A stretch of 64,000 bases of DNA from Eledone cirrhosa (lineage: Eukaryota). Below the pieces are notes generated by a model. It was given only the letters and a program-made list of their open reading frames with translations. It made no database searches and had not been told where the DNA came from. The position numbers were made by a program, and so were the translations under genes. The stretch lies in contig OZ024740.1 of assembly GCA_964016885.1 (NCBI GenBank), positions 82,212,001-82,276,000 of the forward strand, given 5' to 3'. Positions 6,598 through 62,627 of the stretch are shown here, in pieces. Numbering within the stretch: the stretch's first letter is position 1; each line of letters starts with the position of its first letter.

Positions 6598-7443
6598 TGG
6601 GGATTCTTTTCTTTGTTTTTGTGCCTCTCCTTTGTTGTCCTACGCCATTTTGTTTCTGTGTGTATGTTGTGTGCTCAGTCTGCGCATGCGCCACATCCGG
6701 GTGTCTGTGTGTGTTTATGTTCATTTATTTACTGGTTATGTTCATTTATTTACTATGTGTGTGTGTGTTTTCATTTTGTCTTTAATTGTAAGTTGTGATG
6801 TGGCTGTTCCACTCATATTTTCTATTTAATTTTGGTTGTCATTCTTTTATGTTTATTGTCTCTGTGATTTGTCTAAACATTGCGTCTTTTCTGTGTGTAG
6901 ATTCTATTTTTATTTCTATGTTCTCTAATTTACCCTTGTGTTCTATTTTAGCATGTTGGTAGAGTACAGATGATTCTTTACTATCTTGAAGGTCTCCCCA
7001 GTGTTCATTTATCCGTTCCCCTACGCTACGGGCTGTCTCACATATGTACACTATATTTTTGTCTCTACATTGTCCTTCAGTACATCTTATGCTATACACT
7101 ACATTTCTAGTTTTACAGTTAATATGGGGGCTTATTTTACAGGTTATACATTTCTTATCTATACATGAGGGTCTTTGAAAAGGGTATGTCTTGCTAATAA
7201 GTGTTTTTTACGGAGGTACCTGGTTTTTCTACTATCTTAATATTGAGTTTATGTTTATCTAGGGCCCTTCTAAATTTGTAAGCTAATTCACCTCTAGGGG
7301 TTGTATCGATGAACATTACACTCTGGTATTTATTGCTATCATACCATAAGTTTATTCTATTAGCCTTGTTCCTAGTTCTTTCTATTCTATTCCAAAATTT
7401 GCTCCTATACAAGGGACAGGTCCCATTTATGTCATTATTTACC

Positions 7444-7626
7444 GGTGGATTGGCAGTATTGGTAGTGTGTTGGACGCCATGCTTTGACGTATAGAGTTAC
7501 GGCCCTTGCCTTTCTGAGTTCAAATCCCGCCAAGGTTAACTTTGCCTTTCATCCTTACGGGGTCGATAAAATAAAGTACCAGTAATGCACTGGTTAATTG
7601 CTGGCCTTGTGCCTAACGTAGAAACA
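7444..7626 (+). mobile_element. tRNA-derived SINE inserted in PLE, 10-bp TSD ATTATTTACC
   Basis: A-box-like TGGCAGTATTGG, B-box GAGTTCAAATCC, core GCCTTTCATCCTTACGGGGTCGATAAA. TSD at 7434-7443 and 7627-7636. Confidence 0.88.
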
Positions 7627-9672
7627 ATTATTTACCATTTTTTCCCATTTGGTTCTGGCTCCTCTATACACTCTGATTTTATCTCTATGATTGTAGCCAG
7701 AGAACTGCATACGGTGGATGAAGTGTTGTATGTGTCTCTCTAGCTCTTCGGGGTTGCACATGCGGGACACGTTTCTCATCACCCGTAACAAATCCGCAAT
7801 CAGTATGTTGATTTCGGTATGGTCCGAAACGGCCGAGTTTCGGTGGATCAGATGTTTGGAAGTCATGGATTTGGCCTAATTGGAATGGAGGATTTGTTTT
7901 TTGTTATTAATTGTATCTAACCAGAGCTCTGTGTCTAGTACAGGTAATCGATGGTTGGGGTGTTTACTTGGGTAGTCTATAGTAACTGTAATACTCTGGT
8001 GGATGGAGTTAGCTATTTGCTGGATGCTTTACATTGTGTTTTTCTCTAGTTCCTGACTGTTCTCTAGTGGGGGTGTCTTAACTACGATGTTTATATCATC
8101 AACGTAGCGGGAGTACATTATCAGGGTTAAGGGGTCTTCTAATTGTTCTTTAAGTTTAAGTTTAAGTCTACTGTCCCACCATACCATGAATAAGTTAGCT
8201 ATGTCGCCTGCAATGCTAACACCAATGGCTGCTCCTTCCTCTTGGGCATATGTTTTTCCATTAAATTTGAACATATGTTCCTTAAGTGTTAGTTTTATGC
8301 TGGCCCCTACCGCATGTGCAATCATTTTCTTCAGTTCATCGTGGTTTTCGGGTGTCCGTATGGCTCTGGTCCACCCGTTCCATCTATCTCTGTGTGTTTT
8401 CTTGGCCATTGAGGTAATGGTAGGTGGTCTGCCTCTTGCTGGTCTTGTAGGGCACAGGTTGCTAAGGTCATATGTGTCTAGGTAATTATTACTATAGGTA
8501 AGTTCAAGTAGGAGTCCCAGCTCACTGGTATCGATCCCACGGAACTCAACATTGCTCTCACTGATCATTTCTACGCATTTCTCCACAGCAAAATCCACGT
8601 TAATAGATGGATACATGGACACAACGTCCATACTACATATTATGCAGTTTGTTAGGTCCCTAGATCGGTTACTCTCACCGATTCTGCTGAGGAGGTCCTC
8701 CGTGCTATCACATACATCTGGGGACATTTCAATGATGGGGCGTATGATCAGGGAGAGGAAGTAGGACAGTCTTTAGTTACTAGCAATGTTAGCTCCACAG
8801 ACTGGCCGTGTTGGTGGTCCCGTGACAAGGTCACTGCCCGTTTTATGGTCTTTCCGAAGCCCATACAACGCCGGCACGTCATTGTTCCAGGCCTGGAAAT
8901 TGTTGGCAGTCCTTTTGTTGGGCTGCATTATATTCGTCCACATCACCATATGGGCATTGAGGGCTTTTTCTCTATCCTCATGCTCCTGTGGTGTTACCTC
9001 TCTTGTGTTAGTGATGTGGGGTTGCATTGCCTGGATGTAGTTTGGCAGGCTGTCAACCGACATTCTGCCAGACTTGTCTGTTGGAAAGCATGCTATCTCT
9101 CCATTACGCGAGCCCTGCATGAGCTTACGCAAGCCATTTGCAGATTTTTCTCCCAGTTGCTGGGCCTCCATTCTATTATGCTTCTTGCTATACTGTTCTA
9201 TAATATTTCTAAGTTCGGATCTAGCTATACTAAATTGTGCTTCTGTTTGTTCATCGACCTGCGACGGCAATTGTGTGCGTTTGTTAAATGGTAAAGTCGT
9301 GGCGTGGACTCGTCGCAGGTCGAACAATTTATCGGAGGGATTATAAAAAGTAGAGTTCCAGGCTGCTGCTTTATGTGTACTAGTGCTATTGTTATTGTTA
9401 GTTGTGTTGTTTCTATTTCTATTTCCACCAACAGCCTCATGGTTGTTTCTATGTCTCTCATAATTATTCCTGTCTCTTTCCACTGGCTCATTGTTGTTAT
9501 CTACCCTATTTTGTGTGTCTGTGTGTTCGTCTTGGTTATTTTCTTTGTCCTTAGTCTCCCTTCTTTTAATCCTATTACTTTCCCTTATTTCTGTGATTTC
9601 TGTGCTACTGTCATTACTTGTTTTCTGTGTCTGTGTGTTTGTTAAGATTGTGGAGGTGGTGAGAGGCATTGA

Positions 9673-13268: not shown

Positions 13269-13347
<79 letters not shown>

Positions 13348-13455
13348 TAAAAGGAAAAGAAAATGGTGACAAATTGTTCCCAGTGAAAAATAGTTTAATT
13401 AGGAATAAGTAAAAATTAATAATAGTATTGGTTAGTATTCAGTTTTGGTTTTAAG

Positions 13456-13491
13456 TTTTACCGGTTGCGCATTTCTAATGCTTTTCAAAAA
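13456..13491 (-). ncRNA. U3-A8 hammerhead motif with GCAA instead of GAAA (identical copy at 18406-18441)
   Basis: Reverse strand: TTT-TTGAAAA-GCAT(TAGAA)ATGC-GCAAC-CG-GTA-AAA; homologous to the intact HHR at 28216. Confidence 0.6.
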
Positions 13492-13839
13492 TAATTTTGA
13501 GATAGAGCGCACGTGATGTTTGCTCTAATCTAATTAGTTCGGGAAATTCTACCTGTTTTATGTAAAAAAACGTGGCTCCAGATGTATGAAAAAATTCTTG
13601 TGGTCAAAACAATTTTGATTGGACGGTAGAGGTCATGTGAATCTTAAAAATTGATTTTGCGCCAAAAGTAGGTTTGTCTCGGCTGATTGGGAAGTCACTG
13701 AAAAATAAGTCTTTCAAGACAAATATGTGTGTGTGTGTGTGTGTAGTAGTAGTAGTAAAGAGGTTCGTTGCTGTGGTAATGGTCAGCAGGGATGTGTGTG
13801 CGAACCGCAGCATGTTGACAGTTCAAATGCATATTAAGA

Positions 13840-13884
<45 letters not shown>

Positions 13885-13977
13885 TAGTAGTAGTAAAGAG
13901 GTTCGTTGCTGTGGTAATGGTCAGCAGGGATGTGTGTGCGAACCGCAGCATGTTGACAGTTCAAATGCATATTAAGA

Positions 13978-14042
<65 letters not shown>

Positions 14043-14699
14043 CAGAGTAATTCGTGGTAGAGGTATGGTCAGTAGGAATGTGTCTGTACGTGTGTATTTT
14101 AACATGTTAAAAGATATTTTTCAGCTCTTGTCTTATACGGACAAGTGTGTGTGTGTATGTGTGTATATGTCTCTTTGTATGTTAATGTACGCGTGTGTGT
14201 GTGTGTGTATATATGTGTGTGTGTGTGAGAATGTGTGTGTGGGGGGGGGGGGGACCAGTATTTTTGTGATACTGGTAAAAATGGTGTACATTATTCGATA
14301 TTTTCAGTAAAAACGATTTTCTCAATAGAACATCAAAAACATTAATAATAAAAGGTGTGAAATGATATATAGTATTGGCATAATACCAAAGTGTGTGTGA
14401 GTGTCCAGATTGTACGTACTGCAAGGGGAATCCATTAGGCCTTGCCGTATTGGAATACTTGTGTACAACTATATATGTGCCCATCAGTGAGCAATGCATG
14501 TGTGCGTATATGTATGTGTGTGTGTCGGCACGTTTATATCTATAGACATCAAAAGATATGCAAATTTGTGTATATTTCTGTTGCACCATAGACATGTGTG
14601 TTTACGTATGTCATTGTGTTTATATGTGGATAGAGATGTATGCTGATGTAGGTATGTATGTTGACGTGTGTATGTTGTGGGTTCGTCTTAGGGAGAAGT

Positions 14700-17000
14700 G
14701 TTTAGACTGGGTCCGTATTTGTTAATAAAGTGAGATTCCTTGCTGATGCGCTGGGTTTGGGTGGCATTATCTTTAAATTTGTAGAGGGCAAAGATTCTGA
14801 AGTTGGGATGATTTTAGGCGGCACAGGTATCAATGTGTTCACTGAGTGGTATTTTCCTGTATTCCCGTATTTTAATTTGGGATCTATGGACAGTCATGCG
14901 TTGGCGGAGACTGTCTTTGGTTTGGCCTTTGTATTGTTCTCGACAAGCTGAGCAAGTTAATACATATATTAGATTTTCTGATGCGCATGTGAAATTGTGT
15001 TTTACTATAAAACGTTGTCCTTCTTTGACATATAATTCCGAACCCTCTATTAGGTTGATGCATATGCCACATTTAGGTCTATCGCATTTTTTTACTGTGG
15101 GTTTCGTTGTTGTCGTTGGCAGTACTTTGGCATGTGTTAGGATGTTTTTCATTGACTTAGATTGTCTTTTTCTCTTTATGATATCGTCTGTTCGTAGGAT
15201 TTGGTTCATTCTATGGTCCTTTTTCAACACAGGGATGTTCTGGAGGATGGTGTCAATGCCCTATTGTTGAGGGGGTTGTGTGTGGAGATGTATGGAAGAG
15301 CTTTTAGTTTCGGTTGATTTACTTTAGGGTGTCTAATGTCCTGGGTACTGAGTTTTAGGGCACGTTGTATTCCATTGTCAATTAGTGGTGCAGGGTAGTC
15401 CCTGCTTATGAGTGTGTCCTTTAGTTCTTGTAGCCGTAAGTAGCACGTGTTTTTATTGGAGACTATAGTACAGATTCTCTTGGCTAAGTTGTAGGGAATA
15501 TTAATGTTAACGTGTCTAGGGCGGCAAGAGTTGAAAGGAAGATACTGCTTGGTGTCTGTGGGCTTGTAGTATATGTCTGTTTCTATTTTTTTGTTATGGA
15601 TCTTAATGAGCATGTCGAGGAAGGGGAGTTGTTGATGGCTGTATTCCATGGTGAAGTTAATATTCGTGTTGAGCCCATTTATAAGGGTGTGAAATTCTTT
15701 AAGTTTCTCGATGTTTTCGTGCCAAAGGATGAAGCAGTCATCTAGATATCGCTTCCAGTTCCTTTCTATGTGTAAGTGGAGAGTGTTTCCAAATTTGTTT
15801 AGTACTTTAGTGTAGAGGGTGATTTCCAGGTATCCCATGACTAGGTTGGCATAAGTGGGGGCTGTTTTCGTTCCCATAGCGGTCCCAGATTTCTGCCTGT
15901 TGGGTTTGTTATTGAAAACGAAGTAATTGTTCTCCAAGATAAATTTAAGTCCCTCTATCACAAATTCTTTTTTGATGCGTTGTGGGTGTTCATTGTGGTA
16001 ATTATCCAGCCAGAATTGGATAGCTTCTATTCCTATGTTGTGGGGATGTTGGAGTATAGGTTGACTACATCGAACGTCACTAGTAGGGTTTGTTCAGAAA
16101 GGGGAATATTAGGGAGGTGATTGAGCATATCTAGGTCGTCCCTTATATAGCTTTTGATGTGTTTGAGAACAGGCTTGAGAAGGGTTTCAATGAAGTTGCT
16201 AAGGCGGTGGGTTTCGCAAGCGGGGCCTGCTATCATAGGTTTTAATTTGAGATCATTGGGTGAGGGGATATTGATGACCATGTCTGTGGCTTCCTTGCAT
16301 GCCTTACTTATTAATTCGCTTTTATGTACTTTAGGGATACCGTAGAAAAGGCCGGATTTACTTGTGAAGTCTGTGATGAAGCTGAATTCCTTGTTAGTGA
16401 GTCCTTCTTTGTATTAGTTGATCCGTGTTTTTAGGTTTCTCATAATTTTCTGTTGATTGTGGTGTTCAGCCTTTTCGTAGTATATTTCGTTTTCCAAAGT
16501 GGAGAGCGCTAAGTTGATATAGATTTCTGTCTCCTTTTGGACTACTGTACTCCCTTTATCAGCCTCTTTAATTGTAATGGTTCTGTCGGTTTTTAATCTA
16601 TATAATTCTTCACATTATTTCTTGTTGTGGTTTGGCTTGTGTTTTTGCCTGTGCAAGTGTTGGTAAGGGAAGTTTGTGATGTGTTCACAGAATTCGTCCA
16701 GGATTTTATTTTCTACCTTTTGATGGGGTGTAATTGCTTCTATTTCTGGCTAATGATTCATCCTCATTGTACTGGTCGAATAGTTCTTCACTGAATCGTA
16801 ACTTTCTACAGAAGTCTGTGATGTCTTCCTTCATTTCATAGTAGTAGGGTCAATGTGAATTTAAGACCTTTGGAGAGTAAGTTTATAAGGTTGGGTGTTG
16901 GTTCTGAACTAGTTAGATTGATCATTTTTAGTACTCTCGGTTTCTCCTTCTTGTCTTGTGTTATTTTGTTTGCCTGTATTTGTGTGCTGTGTCTAAAAAA
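14700..17000 (-). pseudogene. PLE ORF2: reverse transcriptase + GIY-YIG endonuclease, frameshifted
   Basis: ORF fragments 16033-16281, 15224-15961 and 14814-15230 are collinear with the 24918-27188 protein. Confidence 0.9.
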
Positions 17001-17166
17001 TGGTTGGGGTAGAGGGGTTGTCTGCTGATGTTAAGTGGTCTCCTGTGTTTGTTATATTCCTTGTTGTTGTAAAATGTGGTTCGGGTTCGTGGTTGTAGAT
17101 TGAATGGGGTGTTCCTGTATTGCGAGTATGGATGTGTGTTTCTATGTGTCATGTTGGATTGTGGTG

Positions 17167-18234
17167 TTATAGGTGGCCTACGTTATTGGTTGTATCGTGT
17201 GGTGTGGGTTTGTTGTGTATTGTGGAAGCGAGAGTTGAGAAAATGGAAATTATCTTGCTGTCCCCTTGAAGCGGGGAAGTTGTTACATCTATCATGGTGG
17301 TGGCATCCGCGTAGTAGTTGACTGATTTGGTATGGTGTCTCCTTGAAGGGGGAAAGTTGTAAATGTCATTCTGGGGGAGTTGATTTCTAGGGTTTTTGTT
17401 CCTTCTTATGGTAGCGAGGTTGGGAAGTTCATCTTCGGTGTGGTGCTTCCTTCTTCTTTTGTTAGTGGCTGGGGGGTTCGCGAAGTTGTTGTGCGGTTCG
17501 GTTATGGGTTTTCCTATTTTTATGAACGGGTTATTGGAGGTGTAATCCGTTTGAAAAATCGATTCATAGTGTAGGAACCAAGCGGCACATTTTTCCCAGC
17601 GTTGAAAGGATTTCAGTTCTTCTCTGTTGCAGAGAAGAACTGAAATCTTCTCTACCTTGGGGCCTTCAGTTTTACTGTTGATTTCCAGGAGGATCTCTTC
17701 ATCGATGGTTTTGATTTTTTCCTCATTTGTCTGGGCCCTCAATTTAAGAAGTTCAATTTCTGTCTTCATTTTTTCCAATGCCATTCTTTCCCTAAGGTGT
17801 CTTTGAGGTTCGGATTCATTTGGAATGGACTTTATTTGTATTTTACGGGGGAGAGTTAGAGGGGATGAGTTAAGCCGTTTTTCAAATATCTCCGCTTTGT
17901 TGTGATTTTGTATAATCTTCCAGAATGAGAACTTTCTGTCCCTGAGGGATTTGTTCCATTTTGGAATTGTTCGAATTTTCATTTTGTATGAATCAATCTC
18001 ACATGGTTCTTCGTTGATTTGTTCTGTGTTGGTAGTAGTGAACATAGTTTGGATAGTATCGCAAAGGTTTTGAAGTTTATCGCCGATTTCGGAGGGTTTG
18101 TATCCGGTGACGGTTTCCTCATTTGTGGAGTCAAGTTTGTCGACCAGCACAGATAGGTTGGTGTTAATTTTCTTGAGTTCCTGTAGAATCTCTTCATTTG
18201 TGTTGATAAGAGTTGTATCTGTTTTTGTTGGCAT
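17167..18234 (-). CDS. PLE family B ORF1: coiled-coil protein with basic N/R/Y-rich C-terminus (likely continues after a decay frameshift to 16961)
   Basis: 355-aa ATG ORF starting 60 nt downstream of the 5' pLTR. Heptad-like E/K/L runs (EEILQELKKINTNLSVLVDKLD; MALEKMKTEIELLKLRAQTNEEKIKTIDEE). No RT motifs. Confidence 0.75.
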   Translation of the reverse strand: MPTKTDTTLINTNEEILQELKKINTNLSVLVDKLDSTNEETVTGYKPSEIGDKLQNLCDTIQTMFTTTNTEQINEEPCEIDSYKMKIRTIPKWNKSLRDRKFSFWKIIQNHNKAEIFEKRLNSSPLTLPRKIQIKSIPNESEPQRHLRERMALEKMKTEIELLKLRAQTNEEKIKTIDEEILLEINSKTEGPKVEKISVLLCNREELKSFQRWEKCAAWFLHYESIFQTDYTSNNPFIKIGKPITEPHNNFANPPATNKRRRKHHTEDELPNLATIRRNKNPRNQLPQNDIYNFPPSRRHHTKSVNYYADATTMIDVTTSPLQGDSKIISIFSTLASTIHNKPTPHDTTNNVGHL

Positions 18235-18914
18235 GTTCGTGTGAGGATATGATATTTAAAAGAACAGAGGTGTAACACACGAGTTATGATATATTGGTAA
18301 ACGGAAAAATAAATGCTGACAAATTGTTCACACTGAAAAATAGTTTAATTAGGAATAAGCCAAAATTAGAAATAGTATTGGTTAGTATTCAGTTTTGGTT
18401 TTAAGTTTTACCGGTTGCGCATTTCTAATGCTTTTCAAAAATAATTTTGAGACAGGGCGCCCGTGGTGTTTGCTCTAATCTGATTCGTTTTGGAAATTCG
18501 ACCTGTTTTATGTAAAAAAAAGTGGCTCAAGATGTATGAAAAAATGATTGTGGTCAAAACAATTTTGATTGGTCGGTAGAGGTCATTTGAATCTTAAAAA
18601 TTGATTTTGCGCCAAAAGTAGCTTTGTCTCAGCTGATTGAGAAGTCACTGAAAAATAAGTCTTTCAAGACAAATATGTGTGTGTGTGTGTAGTAGTAGTA
18701 GTAGTAAAGAGGTTCGTTGTTGTGATAATGATCAGCAGGGATGTGTGTGCGAACGGCAGCCTGTTGACAGTTCAAATGCCTATTAAGACAAGTGTGTGTG
18801 TGTGTAGCAGAGTAATTCGTGGTAGAGGGATGGTCATAGGAATGTGTCTGTACGTATGTGGGGATATTTTAACATGATAAAATATATTTTTCTGCTCTAG
18901 TCTTATACGGAGAA

Positions 18915-18947
<33 letters not shown>

Positions 18948-19399
18948 ACTCTTTGTATGTAAATGTACGCGTGTGTATGTGTGTGTGTCTGTATATGTGT
19001 GTGAGAATGCGTGTGTGGGGGTGGGGGTGGACCAGTATTTTTGTGATACTGGTAAAAATGGTGTACATTATTCGATATTTTCAGTAAAAACGATTCTCTC
19101 AATAGAACATCAAATACCTTAATAATAAAAGTTGTGAAATGATATATAGTATCGTCATAATACCATGGTGTGTGTGAATGTCCAGATTGTACGTATATAT
19201 ATATATAATAGTAATAATAAATGTGAGGACTAAATTCCGAAGGAGGCCCGATAAGGTTATATATGTGTCGATATATATAAACCCGTAGAGCAAATATTTA
19301 TTATAAGAATAGATTAAAGTTTAAGCAAAGTTTCAGAAGATCGCGTAAAGAGTGAAATCAGCGACTCGTTGCTTAAATGTTACTGTTATTTTAATATAT

Positions 19400-19739: not shown

Positions 19740-21030
19740 ATTTAAAATCCTTTAAAATTTATAATGGTATTAGAATGAAATAGTATGGTAGAATATTAAA
19801 TGTTAAGTGTTAATTGAACAAGTACTTTTATGCTTTCGCAATCTTCAGGTTCATAATGTGTGGTGACAGTCAAGTTTGCAATTTTCAACTGTAATGAGAT
19901 GGGTAAATGTCGTGCCTTAAATACAGTGAAAAGTGGCTCCAGAATGCTAAATCTTGCAAACTGTATTTCGACCAATCGGTGTGTAATTTCACTGGATTAC
20001 TATAGCTGATTGGTTTAGGCGTCACGGTTGGTTGAGCATGTCTAACGACCAATAATTGATCCTATCCAAAGCATCAATTGTTTTGCTATTTTTAGAAATG
20101 ATGAAAATAGCATTTTCTAGTAATCATCACCATCAACATCACTTTTATTATTATTATTATTGTTGTTGTTGTTGTTCGTGGTCGTAGTTGACATGGTCAT
20201 AGTCATAGTCATAGTAGGAGAAATACCCCATTATTATTGTTCATTTAGCTTGGGTTGGAATTTATCAATAAAATTATTTTCTTTGATTTTTCTCTTGATT
20301 TCACTTGGTTGTGTAATTTGTAGAATGGCAATATTATAAATATTCCCTGACCACATGTTGCTAGATGGTTACTTGGGGGTATCTGACGGATATTTTGGGT
20401 TTCTGATTTGCTGTCGATGTACCCGTGCACGTTCCGATAGTGCATTTCCAGTTTGACCGACATATATTTCTTCACAATTCGGGCATTTAATGCAGTAAAT
20501 TAGATTTCTGCTTTTGCAGTTCATATTTGCATTTGGGAATATTTTTCCAGTTTTTATTTTCATATATTGACCGGCGTGTTTGGATTGAAATGTGCCACAT
20601 CGACTATCATTGCATTTAGATACAGTGAATGATTGGTCTTTGTTGTTAAGGTCAAACTTTGCTTTTGTTAGTAATTGCTTCACATTTTTCGGCTGTCTTT
20701 TACTAGGAGTCAAACATCGATCTGTGATTAAGCCTTTTAATTCATTACTTTGAGCAATGATCGATAGGTTTGCTTTGGCAGTGTTGAAGATATTCTGGTG
20801 ACATGGGTTGTGTATCATTATAAATGGTATGACCAGTTCTTGGTTTCTTCTTCCTTGGGTTGTCCTAAGTTGTTGTATAGGTATTTTTATAGCCCGCTCT
20901 ATGCCATTCTCTATAAGTAGAGATGGGTATTTTTGTTTGAGCAAAATTTCTCTTAGTTCTGTTAGGCGTTTGTACCTGGTATTCGTATCTACTACAATGG
21001 TACACATTCTTCTGGCTAGACAGTATGGAA
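19740..21030 (-). mobile_element. 5'-truncated Penelope-like element (RT thumb + GIY-YIG + pLTR)
   Basis: ORF 20369-21007: KRLTELREILLKQKYP, SKCNDSRCGT, NLIYCIKCPNCEEIYVGQTG, RARVHRQQI. Confidence 0.88.
19815..19853 (-). ncRNA. Minimal type I hammerhead ribozyme lacking stem II
   Basis: Reverse strand: TGAAC-CTGAAGA-TTGC-GAAAG-CATAAAAGTA-CT-T-GTTCA; perfect 5-bp stem I, located in the 3' region of the PLE. Confidence 0.7.
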
Positions 21031-21043
21031 TGATATGTATGTA

Positions 21044-21091
<48 letters not shown>

Positions 21092-21849: not shown

Positions 21850-28363
<6,514 letters not shown>

Positions 28364-28419: not shown

Positions 28420-31400
28420 AGCCACAACAATGCAGATGTGAAATCTCGAGGTAAGAAGTGAGTGAGAAATAGGAGAAAAGTGAAAATGAAAATGAAAACA
28501 AAACAAAGGTAGAAGGGTTACCGTAGTGGAGATTTAATCCCAATATTTCGGGCTCACGCCCATCAACGGGGGAAAGTTCCAAAAGGGGGGGGGGGGGGGG
28601 GGGGAACAGGCTAAGCCGGAGAAAGTTGTATTGTCGTTAAAACTTAGGAATGCCGTTATGGGGAAAATTCAAACGAGGGAAAGAATGTGCGTGCGCGTGA
28701 TAGGCTGTGGCAAAAGCTACTGACCAATTGGGTTAAATCAATAGGGTGCGCTAGCGTGTGAAAGCCGTAAAATATGTGTGTGTAAATATATATGTGTGTG
28801 TATGTGTGTATGTGTGTATGTATGTGAGTGTGTGTGTGTGAAAGATAGTGGGCCGTAGAAGCTGGAAAACAAAGAGTGCAAACAAGTCCTGAGCCAGGAC
28901 TTGTTTGCACCCATAAGGGACCTATTCAGACTATCGGAGATTCGTGCCAAACTCGGTTGCCAAATTACCTTCTTAAAATGCTGCCTAAAGAACAACATCA
29001 TTCCAACCACCATCAGGAATATACATTTACCCGAATGTTTACGATTACCATCCTTCGAAAACACCATCCGCCACATTCAACGCACGTTTATCAAGAAAAT
29101 ACTACAGCATAACCACCATCCACTGCGACTCCATATACAAACGCTCTCCGAGCACATAGATCGTATAGCTCCAACCCTCACCCCTGACCACCAGATCCAG
29201 AAAATACGCGAAGCTATCGATCAGTGTTACCACACCAGAATCAAATACGATAAACAGCGCCTTATACGGAAATACGAATGGACTGTAAACAAATACTACA
29301 ATGACAACATCCGCTCCCACAGACGGACCGACTACAACCACACCAGGGGCAACAGCGATACAACACCCTCCGCTACACCCCCCAACAGCGATCTACCTAC
29401 CAACGATGCTTCACACCTCGTTACCGACCTAACCGGTACCCTCACCAACGACGAACTCGAACTCCTGCGCCTCGGACCCAAGTTCATCATTACACAGCGT
29501 CTCGATGATAGACTGAAACTCGACATCGAAACCAACTTCTGTCGGACAGCATATCAATTGAAATGGCTAACCGCCATCCAAAACAACACCGAGATCGATT
29601 ACAACCCCCCCCCCCCCACACCCCACGTACCACCTCGACAACCCCCCCCCCCCCCACCTACCAACCACGAACTTGACACTAAACTACTCAGGTTGAAACA
29701 TTCTATCTCTAACATCCTTTCCCAACACACACACACACACACAATAAACGAAACCTCACCAATGCACAATTTAATACTCTCACCAACCTAAGATCCAGGA
29801 ACCTTGTTTACCTTCCCTCTGACAAGGGGAAAGAATTCTGTGTCATCTCGAGAGAGACCTACAACAACTTAGCTCTCAGACATCTTAATGACGACAGCCT
29901 CTACTTGAAAGTCACAGGGACCTCCTCGACTCTAATCGAGGAAGGCATTAACACCATATGGACTAACATCTGTGTCCAACGAAAACTGCCAAAGAAGGTA
30001 AAAAACAACATAATGACTCGAAACAGCAAACTACCCACCTTCTACCACCTGGTGAAAACCCATAAAGAAGGACCCGATTTGAAAATCAGGCCCATTGTCT
30101 CTAGCGTGGAGGGCCGACTTTACAAAATATCGTGGCTGCTCTCCACACTACTGAAACCCATTCTACACACACTACCAGCCCATGTCTGCAGCTCAAAGGA
30201 GGTCTTGGAGCGACTACACCATCTGGCGCCCAACACCAGAAAGGACAACGGATATGCCTTCAGTCTTGATGTGGTCGCCCTTTATACCTCCGTACCAGCA
30301 TCCCCAGCCGTCGACTTGTTGACCGAACGAGTCCGAGCATCTAACTTACACTGCTTCGGACTCACACACACGGACATCCACCAACTCCTCTCCATCGTTG
30401 TGGATAATGCATTCTTCAATTTCCTCGGCCACACGTACAAACAGATCTCTGGGCTACCTATGGGCTCTAATCTGTCCGGCATACTTGCGATCTCGTACAT
30501 GGACCACCTGGAACGCAAGGCACTCAACACCTACCTACCCAACGCCGTCGCCTTCTACTCCAGATACGTCGATGACATACTGATACTCACTTCTTCCCGG
30601 GAGATGGTGAATGAAATTCACCAAATCTTCAACGACACTGACCATCACGTCGATTTCACCATCGAACACCCTGGAGAAGACGGGTCACTCGCCCTCCTCG
30701 ACTTCCGTATCAACATCTCGGAAGAAGGAGACATAAACACCACCTTCTACCGCAAGGCAGCGTGCAAGGACTTATTTGTGCATTACAACTCAGCCCTCCC
30801 CAACAACGCTAAGAGAGGCTATGTTCTAAATGAACTTACACGGATCACTAATAGATGCAGCGACCCGATGGGTGGTCTCACCCATACCACGCAATTCCGT
30901 ACTCTACTCAAGTCTAATGGATATCCCAAGCGACTGATTAACGGAATTAGAGACCCTAGACCCAATAGACAGACACCCACTAGAAACTTAGGTAAAAGCA
31001 GGTGCTTCTTTAAAATCCCCCACCTGAGTGAATATACGACGAACGCCATCCTCAGGGCCATACGGAGGGAGGGACTTGACATACATTTGGCCCACACAGG
31101 ACCTTCGCTCCGAAGATGCCTCTCCAACAAACCCGACGAGTCAGATGGGACGTGTTCCCTCAGCAACTGCCCGATACGGGGGGCAGATTGCCTACGCACC
31201 TATGTCGTATATAAGATTCAATGCGATAAATGTAACAAGTTCTACATAGGTAGCACCATCCGACCCCTACATGTTCGTATCAAGGAACATGTCAACACCA
31301 ACGCATCTTCCTTCCGTAAACACATCCTTAAATGCGGAAACCCACAGGGCAGACCCTTGGTCACAGTCCTAGCGACTGAACGCAGCATCGGATCCTTAAG

Positions 31401-32066
31401 GATAAAGAAAGCACTTGTTATTAAGAACCTTAGACCCCCACTTAACAACCGGGCTGAGAGAAATGAACTGACATGGCTAATTTAACCATAGTGACCAGTA
31501 ACAGCCCCTACGGCCTACTATCTTTCATACACACGCACTTATATGTATACCCATACACATACACACACACATCTATATTTATACACGCACACATATTTAT
31601 ACAACCTACCACCTTTCACACTCTTTGTTTTCCAGCTTCTACGGCCCACTATCTTTCACACACACACACTCACATACATACACACATACACATATACACA
31701 CACATATATATTTACACACACATATTTTACGGCTTTCACACGCTAGCGCACCCTATTGATTTAACCCAATTGGTCAGTAGCTTTTGCCACAGCCTATCAC
31801 GCGCACGCGCATTCTTTCCCTCGTTTGAATTTTCCCCATAACGGCATTCCTAAGTTTTAACGACAATACAACTTTCTCCGGCTTAGCCTGTTTCCCCCCC
31901 TTTTGGAACTTTCGTGAGCCCGAAATATTGGGATTAAATCGCCACTACGGTAACCCTTCTACCTTTGTTTTGTTTTCATTTTCATTTTCACTTTTCTCCT
32001 ATTTCTCACTCACTTCTTACCTCGAGATTTCCCATCTGCATTGTTGTGGCTTTCTAAACTACATAT
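28420..32066 (+). mobile_element. Penelope-like element, family C, nearly intact, with inverted 5' pLTR copy (~28420-28877 = reverse complement of ~31618-32066)
   Basis: ORFs 28901-29791 and 29905-31485: LRLGPKF, PSDKG, IRPIVS, LDVVALYTSVP, GLPMGSNLSG, YSRYVDD, VVYKIQCDKCNKFYIGST...RIKEH. Confidence 0.95.
28901..31485 (+). CDS. PLE RT + GIY-YIG protein split by one frameshift at (CA)n 29725-29742
   Basis: The frame after the CA tract reads HNKRNLTNAQFNTLTNLRSRNLVYLPSDKGKEFCVI directly into the 526-aa ORF. The YVDD and GIY-YIG motifs are intact. Confidence 0.85.
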
Positions 32067-34657: not shown

Positions 34658-34715
<58 letters not shown>

Positions 34716-34719
<4 letters not shown>

Positions 34720-35461
34720 AGACGTAAGATAAGAAGATTATAAAATTAACTTACTTACTAAAATATCACTTCCAACTAATTAGTTTCTGGAATGGAGTAG
34801 ATGCATCTTCCGAAGAAGGTGTCGAGAAACATCCCGTCATCAGGAAAGTCTATTCTCATACAAGTTTCCAGGCAAAACGAGGACTCTGGAAGCTTGTTAA
34901 AAAATAAATCAGTGAATAGGAAATAGCAAAGCGTGGACTTACTTCCTAGCCATTGAGAAAATCACTGCCTCTGTGTCTGTGGCAAATTCAAAAAGAATCG
35001 AACGCGTGACATCGAGGTCAATCGGTGGAAAGTGTGTTGTTAATAAGACAGCGGCCAGCCTACTACCGTAGCAGCAGTCATGGCCAGTATTGCCATGACT
35101 GCTGCTACGGTAGTAGGCTGGCCGCTGTCTTATTAACAACACACTTTCCACCGATTGACCTCGATGTCACGCGTTCGATTCTTTTTGAATTTGCCACAGA
35201 CACAGAGGCAGTGATTTTCTCAATGGCTAGGAAGTAAGTCCACGCTTTGCTATTTCCTATTCACTGATTTATTTTTTAACAAGCTTCCAGAGTCCTCGTT
35301 TTGCCTGGAAACTTGTATGAGAATAGACTTTCCTGATGACGGGATGTTTCTCGACACCTTTTTCGGAAGATGTATCTACTCCATTCCAGAAACTAATTAG
35401 CTGGAAGTGATATTTTAGTAAGTAAGTTAATTTTATAATTTTCTTATCTTACGTCTCTTAT
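34716..35461. repeat. Near-perfect ~745-bp palindrome with 7-nt loop (35085-35091); HHR in each arm (34768-34849 minus, 35327-35408 plus)
   Basis: Centre CATGGC-CAGTATT-GCCATG; mirrored ORFs 34939-35151 and 35025-35237. HHR: ACTTTC-CTGATGA-CGGGATG...CATTCCA-GAAAC-TAATTA-G(T/C)T-GGAAGT. Confidence 0.92.
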
Positions 35462-35577
35462 ATTATTGTTCTGCAACCCCATGCATTGAACCACAATGTT
35501 ATTAAGACAAAACCTATATATTTGCTAGCATCGATATGCATTTGTATGTATATATATGTTACTAGATATAAATTCTT

Positions 35578-53939: not shown

Positions 53940-56005
53940 TTCTCTTTTTTCTGGATTAGAAAATGATTAAAACAAAATATTTTACTTTGTGTGAAGTGTT
54001 AAGCTATTAGTTAATTTATTTATTAATTAACAATGGCATTTATTTATTTATTTATATATTTAATAATTGTCTATTACCGGTTTCAGTATTTTTATGTATT
54101 GGTGTAAAATGGTGGTGTTGAAGATGTTAAGGAAATGATGAAGAAAGAATAATGTTATTTACAAACCAGGTTTATGAATTGAAAAGAAAAAAGAAAATTA
54201 AAGGGCAATGTGAAAGAAATAATAATATCATTTACAGGCATGTTCTTGAAGATAAGCAGATCAAAATGTGTTAATATAGCAAGAGTGCTTAGTTGATCCA
54301 TGATGGAGGCAAATGGTAGTCTGGGGTTTGATATGATTTCCCTTTTAGAGAGTTAATATGCAGGGGGAGGTAATTCATGGTGGTCATGTAGGTGGGAGAG
54401 AAATGATCGATGGTATTTAATTAATATAAGAAAAAGGATTAGGTAGGGTGTATGGGAGGTGACTCTTCAGAGAGACATTGGTATTTGGATTTGGTTCATT
54501 TTTCGGTCCAGTTTTAGTTTAGTCAGAAGTTTACTGCATTAAGTAGGGGTTGAAATTGGTACGATGGATGAAAGTAGTGTTGTCTATGAATTTGTAAATG
54601 GGCCAACATTTTAAAGTTTGGATGTAGATTGGGTGCACAATTGGCGATATGTTCATTAACGCAATCCTTCTGTATTCGTGTATTTTGATTTTTGATCTAT
54701 GGACGATCATACGTTGTCGGAGGCTGTTTTTTATCTGTCCTATGTAGTGCTCTTGACAACCTGAGCAGGTAAAAACATAGATTAGGTTTTCAGATGCACA
54801 TGTAAAGTTGTGTTTAACTGTGAAATGTTGTCCTTATTTAAAATGATATGTTGAACCTTCTATTAGATGTATAATATACCACAGTTGGGCCTTCCGCATT
54901 TTTTTTACTGTAGGGTTCATTGTGAGGGTTGGTTGGAATTTGGCTTGTGTCAGGATGTTTTTTATGGATTTAGGTTGTCTTTTCTTCTTTATGATGTTGT
55001 GTTTGGAGAATTTTGTTCATTCTTGAGTCTCTTTTTAGTACAGGAATGTACTAGAGGATGGTGTCCAATGCCTCATTGTTGAGGCGGTTATGTTTGGAGA
55101 TGTATGCTAGAGCTTTCTGTTGCGGTTCATTCCTGAGTTTGGGGTATCTGAGTTCCTGGATGTCGAGTTTTAGAGCACGTTGGAATACATTGTTGATTAT
55201 GGATGGTGGGTAGTTTCTGCTGATAAGTGTGTTTTTTAATTCTTCTAGCCGTGTGCAGCATGTGTATTTATCTGAAACTATTGTGTAAATCTTTCTGGCT
55301 AGGTTATAAGGAATTGCCCTTTTGGTATGTCGAGGGTGGCACGAGTTGAATGGAAGGTATTGTTTGGAGTCTGTGGGTTTGTAGTATATGTCTGTTTCTA
55401 TGTTGTTGTTTGTTTTATTTATGAGGACGTTGAGGAAAGGGAGTTGTTCATGGCTGTAATCCATTGTAAATTGTAAGTCTGTGTTGAGTTCATTTAGAAG
55501 GGCTTTAAATTCAATCAGTCTATCTATACTTTCATGCCAGAGGATGAAGCAGTCGTCCAGATATCTCTTCCAATTCTTTTCTATGTGTTGGTAGAAGTGG
55601 TTACCGTATTTGTCTACAACTTTGCGGGAGATGGGTTTCCCAAAATATACCATGACAAGGTTGCCGTATGAGGGGGCTACTTTGTGCCCATGGCAGTCCC
55701 AGATTTCTGTCTGTAGTATCTGGCATCGAATTCAAAGAAGTTGTTTTCCAAGATGAATGTGAGTCCCTCCAGCACAAATTATTTAGGGATGCGCTGTGGG
55801 AGTTCACTAGGGACATGTTCAAGCCAGAACTGTATTGCCACTCTACCTAGGTTGTGTTGGATATTGGAATATAAATTGATGACATCAAAGGTTACTATTA
55901 TTATTGAGTGTTGTTGGGAGGTGGTTGAGCATGTCAAGGTAGTCCCTTATGAAGCTTTTCATGTGTTTTAGGAAACGTTTAAGCAGAATATCTAGGAAGT
56001 TGATA
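53940..56005 (-). mobile_element. 5'-truncated family B PLE; part of its pLTR is copied in inverted orientation at 53248-53444
   Basis: ORF 55051-55653 NWKRYLDDCFILW...ETDIYYKPTDSKQYL; GIY-YIG remnants at 54700-54900. 53248-53444 is the reverse complement of ~54093-54267. Confidence 0.88.
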
Positions 56006-56140
56006 ATGAACATATCCTACTAGTAACCTTTTAATCTTATAGCCTGGTCTAATTGATTTTTTATGTGTTTAATTAAGGTAATTGTGATAGAAAATGGTGT
56101 ATATATATTATCAAATGATTCTATGGATATACTTTATGAC

Positions 56141-57781: not shown

Positions 57782-60700
57782 CGTTTCTGAATTTGTTTAG
57801 CAAGATTCTTTATCTGAAATCGTGTGTTGAAACCGATATTGTTATACTTTGGGAGGGTCATCTTGCCAATAAGAAACACACGCACCATTGCTTTCACTTC
57901 AATTTATTATAATAAATTTATAAATTTATAAATTTCTGGTTCGTTGGTTGGTTCCACAACCAGATAGTTGTTTATATATTGTCATAGTTCTTTCGTCACA
58001 CACTCTGTGACCTCTTCAGTGACTGGAGATTCTTTTCTTTAATTTTTGTGCCCCTCCTTTGTTCTGTCCTACGCCATTTTGTTTCTGTGTGTTGTGTGCT
58101 CAGTCTGCGCATGCGCCACATCCGGGTGTCTGTGTGTGTTTATGTTCATTTATTTATTTGTTTATTTACATGTTACTGGTTGGTTGTTTGTTCTATGTGT
58201 GTGTGTGTTTTAATTTTGTCCTTAATTGTAAGTTGTGATGTTGCTGTTCCACTCATATTTTCTATTTAATTTTGGCTGTAATTCTTTTATATGTATTGCC
58301 TCTGTGATTTGTCAAAACATTGCGTCTTTTCTGTGTGTAGATTCTATTATTATTTCTATGTTCTCTAATTTACCCTTGTGTTCTATTTTAGCATGTTGGT
58401 AGAGTACAGATGATTCTTTACTATCTTGAAGGTCTCGCCAGTGTTCATTTATCCGTTCCCCTACACTACGAGCTGTCTCACCTATGTACACTATATTTTT
58501 GTCTCTACATTGTCCTTCAGTACATATTATGCTAAACAAATTCAGAAACGAAATATTGTAAGCCTTAGCCAGGCTAACAAGATACTGAAAACCACCATGT
58601 TCTGTTGTCTACGAAAAACCATAACATCTCGACAACTACACTTCATAAAAGAATGTGCCTCGTCCCGAGTTTACACCAACACCATCAACACCGACGTAAG
58701 AAGATTACAACTCACCAAAAACCAAGCAGATAGGCTAAAACGAACACTAATTCTAAACATAAAAAAGATCTATAGAGAATTAAGCCATCAAGAAAAACAT
58801 AAGCGTAACCTAATACAAGAAATAGCTAGGATCACCACACCAAGAGAGAAACTAATATTTATAAGCCTTATACGTCCTGAAGAACACTACATTACTCAAG
58901 AATGTGATAAGCACTTTAACAAGAAACTAAAGTGGCTTAAGCAGATAAAGGTAAATCAGGATACTGTAGAGAATACCAATAGATATCCCGACAAAATTGA
59001 CGGTATAAATATGGCCGACACCTCATTAACAGATGAGTTCAACAACAACAACAACAACACAAATATATACGGCAAAATGGTAATAGATGACGATGAGTTA
59101 TCTGTATTACTTCTACCACCGAAATTTGAGACATTCAAGAAGGTAAATATGATTAGTTGTCTGTCAGAAATAGAAAAATAATTTACAAAACTACGTTGGA
59201 GCCTCAAAAACAAAAAGAAAAACAAAAGTAACAATATACGCACACACATATACAACACAGATCCCAACAACAACAAAATTAACAATATACGCACACACAT
59301 CTACAACACAGATCCCAACAACAACAGACACACAGACACAAACAACAATAACAACAACATACACACCACCACCAACAACAACAACAACAATAATAACATA
59401 CCCAGAAACAACAACAACAGACACGCAGACAAAAACAACAATAACAACACACACAACAATAATAACACACACGGAGACAACAACAACACACATCAACAAC
59501 AGCACACATCAACAACAACAACTCACACACATTCAATGCCTCTCACCACCTCCACAATCTTAACAAACACACAGACACAGAAAACAAGTAATGACAGTAG
59601 CACAGAAATCACAGAAATAAGGGAAAGTAATAGGATTAAAAGGAGAAGGGAGACTAAGGACAAAGAAAATAACCAAGACGAACACACAGACACACAAAAT
59701 AGGGTAGATAACAACAATGAGCCAGTGGAAAGAGACAGGAGTAATTATGAGAGACATAGAAACAACCATGAGGCTGTTGGTGGAAATAGAAATAGAAACA
59801 ACACAACTAACAATAACAATAGCACTAGTACACATAAAGCAGCAGCCTGGAACTCTACTTTTTATAATCCCTCCGATAAATTGTTCGACCTGCGACGAGT
59901 CCACGCCACGACTTTACCATTTAACAAACGCACACAATTGCCGTCGCAGCTCGATGAACAAACAGAAGCACTATTTAGTATAGCTAGATCCGAACTTAGA
60001 AATATTATAGAACAGTATAGCAAGAAGCATAATAGAATGGAGGCCCAGCAACTGGGAGAAAAATCTGCAAATGGCTTGCGTAAGCTCATGCAGGGCTCGC
60101 GTAATGGAGAGATAGCATGCTTTCCAACAGACAAGTCTGGCAGAATGTCGGTTGACAGCCTGCCAAACTACATCCAGGCAATGCAACCCCACATCACTAA
60201 CACAAGAGAGGTAACACCACAGGAGCATGAGGATAGAGAAAAAGCCCTCAATGCCCATATGGTGATGTGGACGAATATAATGCAGCCCAACAAAAGGACT
60301 GCCAACAATTTCCAGGCCTGGAACAATGACGTGCCGGCGTTGTATGGGCTTCGAAAAGACCATAAAACGGGCAGTGACCCTGTCACGGGACCACCAACAC
60401 GGCCAGTCTGTGGAGCTAACATTGCTAGTAACTAAAGACTGTCCTACTTCCTCTCCCTGATCATACGCCCCATCATTGAAATGTCCCCAGATGTATGTGA
60501 TAGCACGGAGGACCTCCTCAGCAGAATCGGTGAGAGTAACCGATCTAGGGACCTAACAAACTGCATAATAGGTAGTATGGACGTTGTGTCCCTATATCCA
60601 TCTATTGACGTGGATTTTGCTGTGGAGAAATGCGTAGAAATGATCAGTGAGAGCAATGTTGAGTTCCGTGGGATCGATACCAGTGAGCTGGGACTCCTAC

Positions 60701-61580
60701 TTAAACTTACCTATAGTAATAATTACCTAGATACATATGACCTTAGCAACCTGTGCCCTACAAGACCAGCAAGAGGCAGACCACCTACCATTACCTCAAT
60801 GGCCAAGAAAACCCACATAGATAGATGGAACGGGTGGACCAGAGCCATACGGACACCCGAAAACCACGATGAACTGAAGAAAATGATTGCACATGCGGTA
60901 GGGACCAGCATAAAACTAACCCTTAAGGAACATATGTTCAAATTTAATGGAAAAACATATGCCCAAGAGGAAGGAGCAGCCATTGGTGTTAGCATTGCAG
61001 GTGACATAGCTAACTTATTCATGGTATGGTGGGACAGTAGACTTAAACTTAAACTTAAAGAACAATTAGAAGACCTCTTAAACCTGATAATGTACTCCCG
61101 CTACGTTGATGATATAAACATCGTAGTTAAGACACCCCCACTAGAGAACAGTCAGGAACTAGAGAAAAACACAATGTAAAGCATCCAGCAAATAGCTAAC
61201 TCCATCCACCAAAGTATTAGAGTTACTATAGACTACCCAAGTAAACACCCCAACCATCGATTACCTGTACTAGACACAGAGCTCTGGTTAGATACCATTA
61301 ATAACAAAAAACAAATCCTCCATTCCCATTAGGCCAAACCCATGACTTCCAAACATCTGATCCCCGAAACTCGGCCGTTTCGGACCATACCAAAATCAAC
61401 ATACTGATTGCGGATTTGTTACGGGTGATGAGAAACGTGTCCCGCATGTGCAACCCCGAAGAACTAGAGAGACACATACAACACTTCATCCACCGTATGC
61501 AGTTCTCTGGCTACAATCATAGAGATAAAATTAGAGTGTATAGAGGAGCCAGAACCAAATGGGAAAAAATGGTAAATAAT

Positions 61581-61763
61581 TGTTTCTACGTTAGGCACAA
61601 GGCCAGCAATTACCCAGTGCCTTACTGGTACTTTATTTTATCGACCCCGTAAGGATGAAAGGCAAAGTTAACCTTGGCGGGATTTGAACTCAGAAAGGCA
61701 AGGGCCGTAACTCTATACGTCAAAGCATGGCGTCCAACCCTCTACCAATACTGCCAATCCACC
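61581..61763 (-). mobile_element. tRNA-derived SINE in PLE copy 2, TSD GGTAAATAAT
   Basis: Same site and TSD as 7444-7626 (TSD at 61571-61580 and 61764-61773). Confidence 0.88.
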
Positions 61764-62627
61764 GGTAAATAATGACATAAATGGGACCTGCCCTTTGTAC
61801 AGGAGCAAATTTTGGAATAGAATAGAAAGAACTAGGAACAAGGCTAATAGAATAAACTCATGGTATGATAGCAATAAATACCAGAGTGTAATGTTCATCG
61901 ATACAACCCCTAGAGGTGAATTAGCTTACAAATTTAGAAGGGCCCTAGATAAACATAAACTCAATATTAAGATAGTAGAAAAACCAGGTACCTCCGTAAA
62001 AAACACTTATTAGCAAGACATACCCTTTTCAAAGACCCTCATGTATAGATAAGAAATGTATAACCTGTAAAATAAGCCCCCATATTAACTGTAAAACTAG
62101 AAATGTAGTGTATAGCATAAGATGTACTGAAGGACAATGTAGAGACAAAAATATAGTGTACATATGTGAGACAGCCCGTAGCGTAGGGGAACGGATAAAT
62201 GAACACTGGCGAGACCTTCAAGATAGTAAAGAATCATCTGTATTCTACTAACATGCTAAAATAAAACACAAGGGTAAATTAGGGAACACAGAAATAAAAA
62301 TAGAATCTACACACAGAAAAGACGCAATGTTTAGACAAATCACAGAGGCAATAAACATAAAAGAATTACAACCAAAATTAAATAGAAAATATGATTGGAA
62401 CAGCAACATCACAACTTACAATTAAGGACAAAATGAAAACACACACACACATAGAACAAACAACCAACCAGTAACATGTAAATAAACAAATAAATAAATG
62501 AACATAAACACACACAGACACCCAGATGTGGCGCATGCGCAGACTGAGCACACAACACACACACAGAATCAAAATGGCGTAGGACAGAACAAAGGAGTGG
62601 CATAAAAAACAAAGAAAAGAATCCCTA

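Follow-up and report, generated by a model that had tools for sequence, protein, structure and literature searches.

We analyzed a 64,000-nt stretch of AT-rich, microsatellite-laden DNA with the character of an animal genome (hereafter, the window) and found that a previously predicted frame within it is a decayed copy of ORF1 from a two-ORF, endonuclease (EN)-bearing, Neptune-like clade of Penelope elements, in which a conserved -1 site probably links ORF1 to the reverse transcriptase (RT) and the ORF1 protein (ORF1p) would function in a ribonucleoprotein (RNP). The expression logic of these elements would be gag/gag-pol-like, not LINE-1-like, and operate through a predicted -1 slippery site that the original prediction of a coiled-coil ORF1 missed.

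A Penelope-like unit and its neighbors in the window

The unit lies on the minus strand between two direct copies of a pseudo-LTR (pLTR). The 5′ copy occupies 18289-19195 and the 3′ copy, which ends in (TA)n, 13339-14418; the two share identity blocks of 93% and 83%. An optional 37-nt pLTR "tail" reaches 18252, and many contigs end at 18289 or 18252, followed by (TA)n. Between the pLTRs are ORF1, a decayed RT, a Zn-finger-like CX4CxxC linker, and a GIY-YIG nuclease, which bears out the original placement of the ORF between a 5′ pLTR and RT. The last three components make up ORF2 (14688-17000, minus strand), which is in the -1 frame and carries several stops and indels, for example at 16840 and 16709. 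Contigs of many identity classes stack on the 2.1-kb stretch 16300-18400 (1,510 from run X1, at varied identities) and become fewer toward its 5′ end, as expected for a 5′-truncating repeat, with depth not equal to copy number.

A 5′-truncated member of a sister family, inserted at (TA)n, occupies 24772-27188 on the plus strand. It retains an ORF1 tail (stop at 24949-24951), a heptamer at 24882-24888, and an RT-GIY-YIG frame in -1. The piece at 24772-24951 had been described as compositionally similar to the ORF1 tail; the relationship goes beyond composition, as the piece is a true homolog (P0002 tail match, E 5e-4 within the window). More 5′-truncated relatives of the same RT/EN group as the focal unit are found at 54580-56006 and 20369-21076.

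Several other repeats share the window. Between the two Penelope copies lies a decayed Tc5/pogo-type DNA transposon (22331-23884, minus strand; HTH_Tnp_Tc5 E 2e-9, DDE_1 E 2e-4). A further Penelope-type element (28597-31900; RT and GIY-YIG) is flanked by 282-nt inverted repeats. Across a (CA)n tract, the reading frame of this element shifts by -1 between the N-terminal domain (28859-29791) and the RT (29713-31485), probably through decay. A third RT family, with an Asn-rich linker, is present as two copies in inverted orientation 50 kb apart (6753-9564 and 59644-62454); they are 98-99% identical, indicating recent activity or duplication. At 34713-35463 there is a near-perfect palindrome with 372-nt arms, 99% complementary, and a 7-nt spacer. 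Rfam returned no hammerhead ribozyme in the window or in 9 loci, and the pattern CTGANGA..GAAA is absent from the window copies; by eye, hammerhead-like core motifs that Rfam did not report occur in the 3′ regions of two of ten loci examined (L041 near 3277 and L088 near 3659, oriented coordinates).

ORF1 frames and lesions in the window copy

An ATG at 18234 on the minus strand opens a 355-codon frame that stops at 17167-17169 (17167-18234), of which only codons 1-311 belong to the native ORF1 frame. The native basic, disordered tail is now in the other frame at 16961-17301, where it contains a nonsense codon at 17183-17185 and ends at the ORF1 stop, 16961-16963. Because the span 16961-18234 measures 1,274 nt, which is not divisible by 3, and its tail lies in the other frame, the "ORF" of the original prediction merges two frames: its start, its 355 codons, and the W-rich motifs it quoted are present, but its end at 16961 with an N/R/Y/P-rich tail is not, since the frame stops at 17167 and the tail is read in another.

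We compared this copy with contigs from 4 of 11 listed runs (three organism labels) aligned on 16300-18400. In one X4 contig, 28 additional letters follow 17301; the alignment of an X5 contig is clipped six letters further on, at 17307, and no X1 contig is listed with these letters. From the X4 contig and frame arithmetic we call a 28-nt deletion at 17301-17302, a loss that is exactly the shift needed between the 355-aa frame and the tail frame. It takes ORF1 out of frame from codon 312, so that residues ~312-355 of the 355-aa frame are out of the native frame. This call stands on thinner data than the other ORF1 lesions, and the X4 contig behind it also shows a 2-nt gap at 17348, which is absent in other runs. 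The nonsense codon (TAA, 17183-17185) is a sense codon in 4/4 runs. A perfect 18-bp palindrome at 17595-17661 (z -8.5) is specific to the window copy, and at 17633-17644 a 9-nt loss with substitutions, at which all four runs differ from the window, deletes W201, which 84 of 88 homologs retain. Substitutions replace W120 and Y117 as well. By arithmetic, the intact ORF1 comprises 437 codons including the stop, or about 436 aa. ORF1 had been said to have stayed open while ORF2 decayed; the deletion, the nonsense codon, and the palindromic lesion each break it, and judged from these lesions the window copy is dead, ORF1 having decayed together with ORF2.

Linkage of ORF1 to Penelope-type RT

Among representatives at 50% identity, we identified 339 ORF1 relatives with E ≤ 1e-3; a word-indexed search returned only one. 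To place ORF1 relative to RT we used loci selected by a degenerate pattern matching the N-terminal motif of RT, a sample outside which free-standing ORF1 homologs would fall. This yielded 98 loci, 56 of which encode Penelope-type RT. The ORF1 core profile matched 14 of these 56, on the same strand in every case and 578-1,673 nt upstream of the RT motif, and 0 of the 42 non-RT loci. Thus, across 98 loci picked by RT motif, homologs sit upstream of the Penelope-like RT in 14/14 profile matches, a linkage that the original prediction had proposed as a check. A fifteenth ORF1-RT locus, L006, matches P0155 at 99.5%, and the next ORF1 start after its nuclease indicates a tandem. L021 contains a whole 4.3-kb unit: a 342-nt terminal repeat, a 474-aa ORF1 starting 20 nt after the repeat, the heptamer, an RT that is broken downstream, and EN. 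pLTRs in a partial tandem layout, as in EN+ Penelope-like elements, are therefore seen in the window pair, L021, and L006.

Comparison between copies, which had also been proposed, reveals purifying selection on ORF1 (pN 0.19 versus pS 0.92 for L054/L069; dN 0.054 versus dS 0.188 for L021/L026). Taken at the sequence level, these results support ORF1 as a real, conserved, element-encoded gene. The two-ORF elements form one RT clade (SH-aLRT 98, in a quick tree with 6 short rows omitted and no named references). L014, first labeled single-ORF, is placed inside this clade and has a heptamer at -258 and an ORF1-like tail. A near-intact two-ORF Penelope-like element with a 770-codon RT-EN was also observed on a contig binned in a Bacteroidota MAG (L088, 3,875 nt); its presence in this bin is probably eukaryotic contamination.

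A predicted slippery heptamer at the ORF1-RT junction

A predicted -1 frameshift site, U_UUU_UUA, lies in phase at 16994-17000 on the minus strand, where ORF1 reads H-F-L and the -1 frame F-F-R. T TTT TTA closes ORF1 in both window copies (16994-17000 and 24882-24888), with the RT frame in -1. Every ORF1-positive metagenome locus with ORF1 upstream of RT (14/14) has an in-phase T_TTT_TT[A/G]. Among 23 close RT relatives, 17 have the in-phase heptamer, one has a T8 run (L058), and five are without a site, one being too short and four looking decayed. At the other RT loci an in-phase heptamer at ≤300 nt occurs in 2 of 32 (L014 and L072; L082 falls in neither set). L072 is single-ORF, with an RT frame open through a repeat, and its in-phase T6G is due to chance. 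Following the heptamer, TTA is succeeded by G at 11 of 12 sites and TTG mostly by T, a difference that may reflect ancestry.

The surrounding frames have the organization expected of a -1 frameshift, namely an in-phase X_XXY_YYZ heptamer with a downstream -1 ORF. The RT frame is stopped within 19 codons upstream of the heptamer at 18/19 junctions, and at 12/19 there is no Met between that stop and KGLKF. ORF1 continues 3-41 codons past the heptamer, overlapping ORF2, and in six loci the RT frame stays open from the heptamer through the whole nuclease, a length of 765-794 codons. X4 and X5 contigs span the junction without an indel. The signal can also be read in the proteins: 70 of 92 long-tailed ORF1 homologs have "FL" among their last 50 residues, compared with 2 in 6,866 other tail positions. 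Codons for K, E, Q, M, and W cannot end in U, and none of these residues precedes FL (0/70 against an expectation of 21%; P 6e-8 under the assumption of independence). The homologs are related, and the FL and heptamer counts overstate independence accordingly. The remaining 22 of 92 long tails are without FL; some end in FF/FR or look frameshifted.

We found no conserved hairpin or pseudoknot within 80 nt of the heptamer (median shuffle P 0.51 for pseudoknots and 0.63 for hairpins, 17 junctions). The region downstream of the window heptamer is unstructured (z +0.9), and the sole feature after the heptamer is a short GC-rich stretch that often encodes F-F-x-P in the RT frame. The slip therefore probably depends on the slipperiness of the heptamer itself or on a non-canonical stimulator. 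The available portion of PMC3458567 gives 4-6% -1 slippage for U6A in reticulocyte lysate with no added stimulator, such that the heptamer alone could suffice.

Predicted architecture of ORF1p

As predicted from its homologs, intact ORF1 shows three parts within about 400-470 aa: an N-terminal coiled coil, a three-helix core, and a basic disordered tail. The coiled coil (aa 11-41) and a second amphipathic helix (aa 47-67) map to 18034-18204 on the minus strand, with periods of 3.5 and 3.65, AF2 helices at pLDDT 57-81, and matches to coiled-coil chains (best E 9e-4); across 89 homologs, aa 11-41 has a hydrophobic period of 3.5. The conserved core (aa 78-239; 17518-18003, minus strand) includes W93, R100, P129-R-K, E140, E159, D178, W201, and NPF. 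Two heptad-like regions had originally been described; aa 11-41 is a true one, but the later helices (78-122, 142-188, and 192-230) have weak heptad periodicity, and the model packs them into a three-helix bundle instead of a free coiled coil. The tail is Asn/Arg/Gln-rich, basic, and disordered, and it is net positive in 91 of 92 homologs. Two motifs recur in tails among 160 homologs, [TS]YA[DEQSN][VAI] in 45 and [YF]IG[RKQ] in 13, and are possible binding motifs.

ORF1 matched no Pfam family and no named family was found. No homology to LINE-1 ORF1p or Gag was detected by sequence or fold among the matches listed, a CCHC zinc knuckle occurs in 0/160 homologs, and no capsid fold is among the listed structure matches. 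The model has no beta-sheet domain, and none of the listed matches is to an RRM or CTD, the domains that follow the trimeric coiled coil in LINE-1 ORF1p. ORF1p is likely helical and RNA-binding, and it is probably an RNP protein or chaperone, a role that a coiled coil joined to a basic disordered tail would fit.

Class of the element

A Penelope-type RT with a C-terminal GIY-YIG places the element with EN+ Penelope-like elements; its Pfam RVT_1 and GIY-YIG matches are mostly below curated cut-offs, with GIY-YIG above cut-off in the sister copy. The C-terminal position of EN differs from the N-terminal GIY-YIG of Naiad/Chlamys, and the presence of GIY-YIG together with (TA)n flanks differs from Athena/Coprina, which have no endonuclease and attach to telomeric repeats. 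Elements combining a coiled-coil ORF1 with a frameshift, as reportedly described by Arkhipova and colleagues in 2017, are EN-less Athena/Terminon with T6A/T6G sites. Both window copies carry CX4CxxC, consistent with the long CX2-5CxxC, CCHH form of the Neptune linker when compared by eye with supplementary Figure S2 of PMC8557442. By eye, the RT motif is also nearer the Neptune rows than Naiad or Nematis, alongside a tree without named references. Canonical EN+ elements are described as single-ORF in the accessible text of Craig et al. 2021 (PMC8557442), but two overlapping ORFs occur across the whole clade studied here.

Our literature search, with incomplete coverage of key sources, found no published description of an ORF1 of the window type. 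According to the Figure 1 legend of PMC8557442, a frameshift that has a pseudoknot may set ORF1 apart, and coiled coils are marked; on this basis, a frameshifted coiled-coil ORF1 is already in print for some Penelope-like elements, and the EN-bearing version is the variant here.

A model for ORF1p function and its alternatives

We propose that RNA initiated in the pLTR would be translated mostly into free ORF1p. Very likely, to judge from the junction sequences, the majority of ribosomes terminate at the end of ORF1 and a few percent shift to -1 at the heptamer, aided by its own slipperiness or by a non-canonical stimulator, to produce an ORF1-RT-EN fusion of about 1,200 aa. A fixed excess of upstream protein over polymerase is the Gag/Gag-Pol strategy. 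The excess ORF1p may then oligomerize through its coiled coil, its basic tail binding or condensing on element RNA, and the scarce fusion molecules would join through their shared ORF1 part to form an RNP that serves target-primed reverse transcription at (TA)n. That free ORF1p coats the RNA and recruits the fusion for (TA)n retrotransposition in this way is, on the features of the predicted protein, a reading we moderately favor.

The main rival to the RNP mechanism is that the slip merely throttles RT: the fusion would be the working protein, its ORF1 part an ordinary Penelope-type N-terminal domain, and free ORF1p a by-product or repressor. In single-ORF Neptune-like loci an N-terminal domain is encoded in frame; its model resembles that of the ORF1 core, with shared top folds 3lg7, 1s94, and 8ipq, and these elements manage at a 1:1 ratio. 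The models place helices at 4-33, 54-101, and 103-144 in the single-ORF domain against 78-122, 142-188, and 192-230 in the core, matching in their helix-loop-helix-turn-helix lengths. The first loop of both holds a helix of 3 residues, and on this basis homology of the two is plausible. However, the profile-profile match is not significant (probability 0.1-0.2%, E 0.4-0.6), with only proline loop motifs aligning, and the two-ORF clade has kept the coiled coil together with a strongly basic tail, a combination typical of stand-alone RNP proteins. We regard the throttle as unlikely. It is very unlikely that the -1 product arises instead from polymerase slippage on T6 or from LINE-1-style reinitiation of ORF2: one extra U yields the same fusion, no stimulator is conserved, and an in-frame Met is usable at 7/19 junctions, but the fixed codon phase seen in all intact loci is not something that polymerase slippage would require, and 12/19 junctions have no Met ahead of the conserved RT N-terminal motif.

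Alternatively, the T-run could serve in RNA processing, for instance as a 3′ splice acceptor, with RT reached by splicing. Eleven of 20 junctions read TTTTTTAG (T6-A-G), which is acceptor-like, and the available text of PMC8557442 notes conserved introns in Penelope-like elements. Against this, the other 9/20 junctions have GT, GG, or AA in place of AG after the run, which makes an acceptor very unlikely; moreover, in 16/70 proteins FL is followed by a residue for which no codon starts with G, and the run is exactly six T in a fixed phase. Capture of a host gene, or a chance reading frame within a repeat, would accord with the ORF having no named family and a single relative by word-indexed search, but this reading is largely refuted by the hundreds of relatives with the same C-terminal signal, the fixed place upstream of RT, the purifying selection, and the 1,510 contigs of one run that cover the 2.1-kb stretch with a spread of identities.

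Significance and comparison with known systems

Little is known about how Penelope-like elements package their RNA and reach their targets, and those bearing EN are usually annotated as single-ORF. For a two-ORF clade with a fixed -1 site, standard RT ORF calls begin wrongly and omit about 400 aa. The ORF1-RT junction is possibly a stimulator-free frameshift, and the ORF1 core is a small helical domain; if that core is the domain carried in frame by single-ORF elements, it would provide the first testable role for it. A broader scenario, which we consider doubtful, is that the ORF1 core is the ancestral Penelope three-helix N-terminal domain, uncoupled from RT in one widespread EN-bearing clade by a stimulator-free U6A/U6G slip to become a Gag-like structural protein of a new fold class that packs the RNA, with a few fusions, into an ordered particle, the Gag/Gag-Pol strategy thereby being reinvented in telomerase's sister lineage.

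The window element shares with the Neptune group, as presented in the available parts of PMC8557442, pLTRs, (TA)n targets, an RT with G-x-A-M-G, a long CX2-5CxxC linker, and a C-terminal CCHH GIY-YIG. Canonical Neptune is single-ORF in that source, whereas here the -1 site connects RT to an ORF1 of its own. A killifish Neptune has an unassigned 420-nt ORF1 with no frameshift signal reported in the accessible text of PMC12602865, unlike the window clade with its -1 site, and PMC5408684 mentions some Neptune-like elements with an esterase, which the window element does not have. Coiled-coil-ORF1 Penelope-like elements likewise have a coiled-coil ORF1 upstream of RT with a frameshift between them (PMC8557442). 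Comparing by that description only, a pseudoknot is present there and no conserved pseudoknot here, and the window element is set apart by its C-terminal GIY-YIG and its position in microsatellites.

With HIV-1 gag/pol the window element shares the identical heptamer, U_UUU_UUA, as given in the portion of PMC3458567 available, and presumably an excess of upstream protein. In contrast to HIV-1 as treated there, the window clade has no conserved stem-loop, CCHC knuckle (0/160), protease, or capsid-fold match among those listed, and U6G is common. Like LINE-1 ORF1p (coiled coil, RRM, CTD) and ZfL2-1 ORF1p (coiled coil, arginine-rich motif, esterase), ORF1p is encoded by the first ORF and would combine an N-terminal coiled coil with a basic, presumed RNA-binding segment; ZfL2-1 ORF1p is the precedent for pairing a coiled coil with arginine-rich RNA binding without an RRM (PMC3905857, available text). 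The modeled core of the window ORF1 is an all-alpha three-helix domain, in contrast to the RRM/CTD or esterase of the non-LTR proteins in the same text. Expression also differs: the window RT would be fused to ORF1 by frameshift. By analogy, we infer that the element resembles Gag/Gag-Pol in stoichiometry and non-LTR ORF1p in build. LINE-1 ORF2, unlike the RT of the window clade, is a separately initiated ORF.
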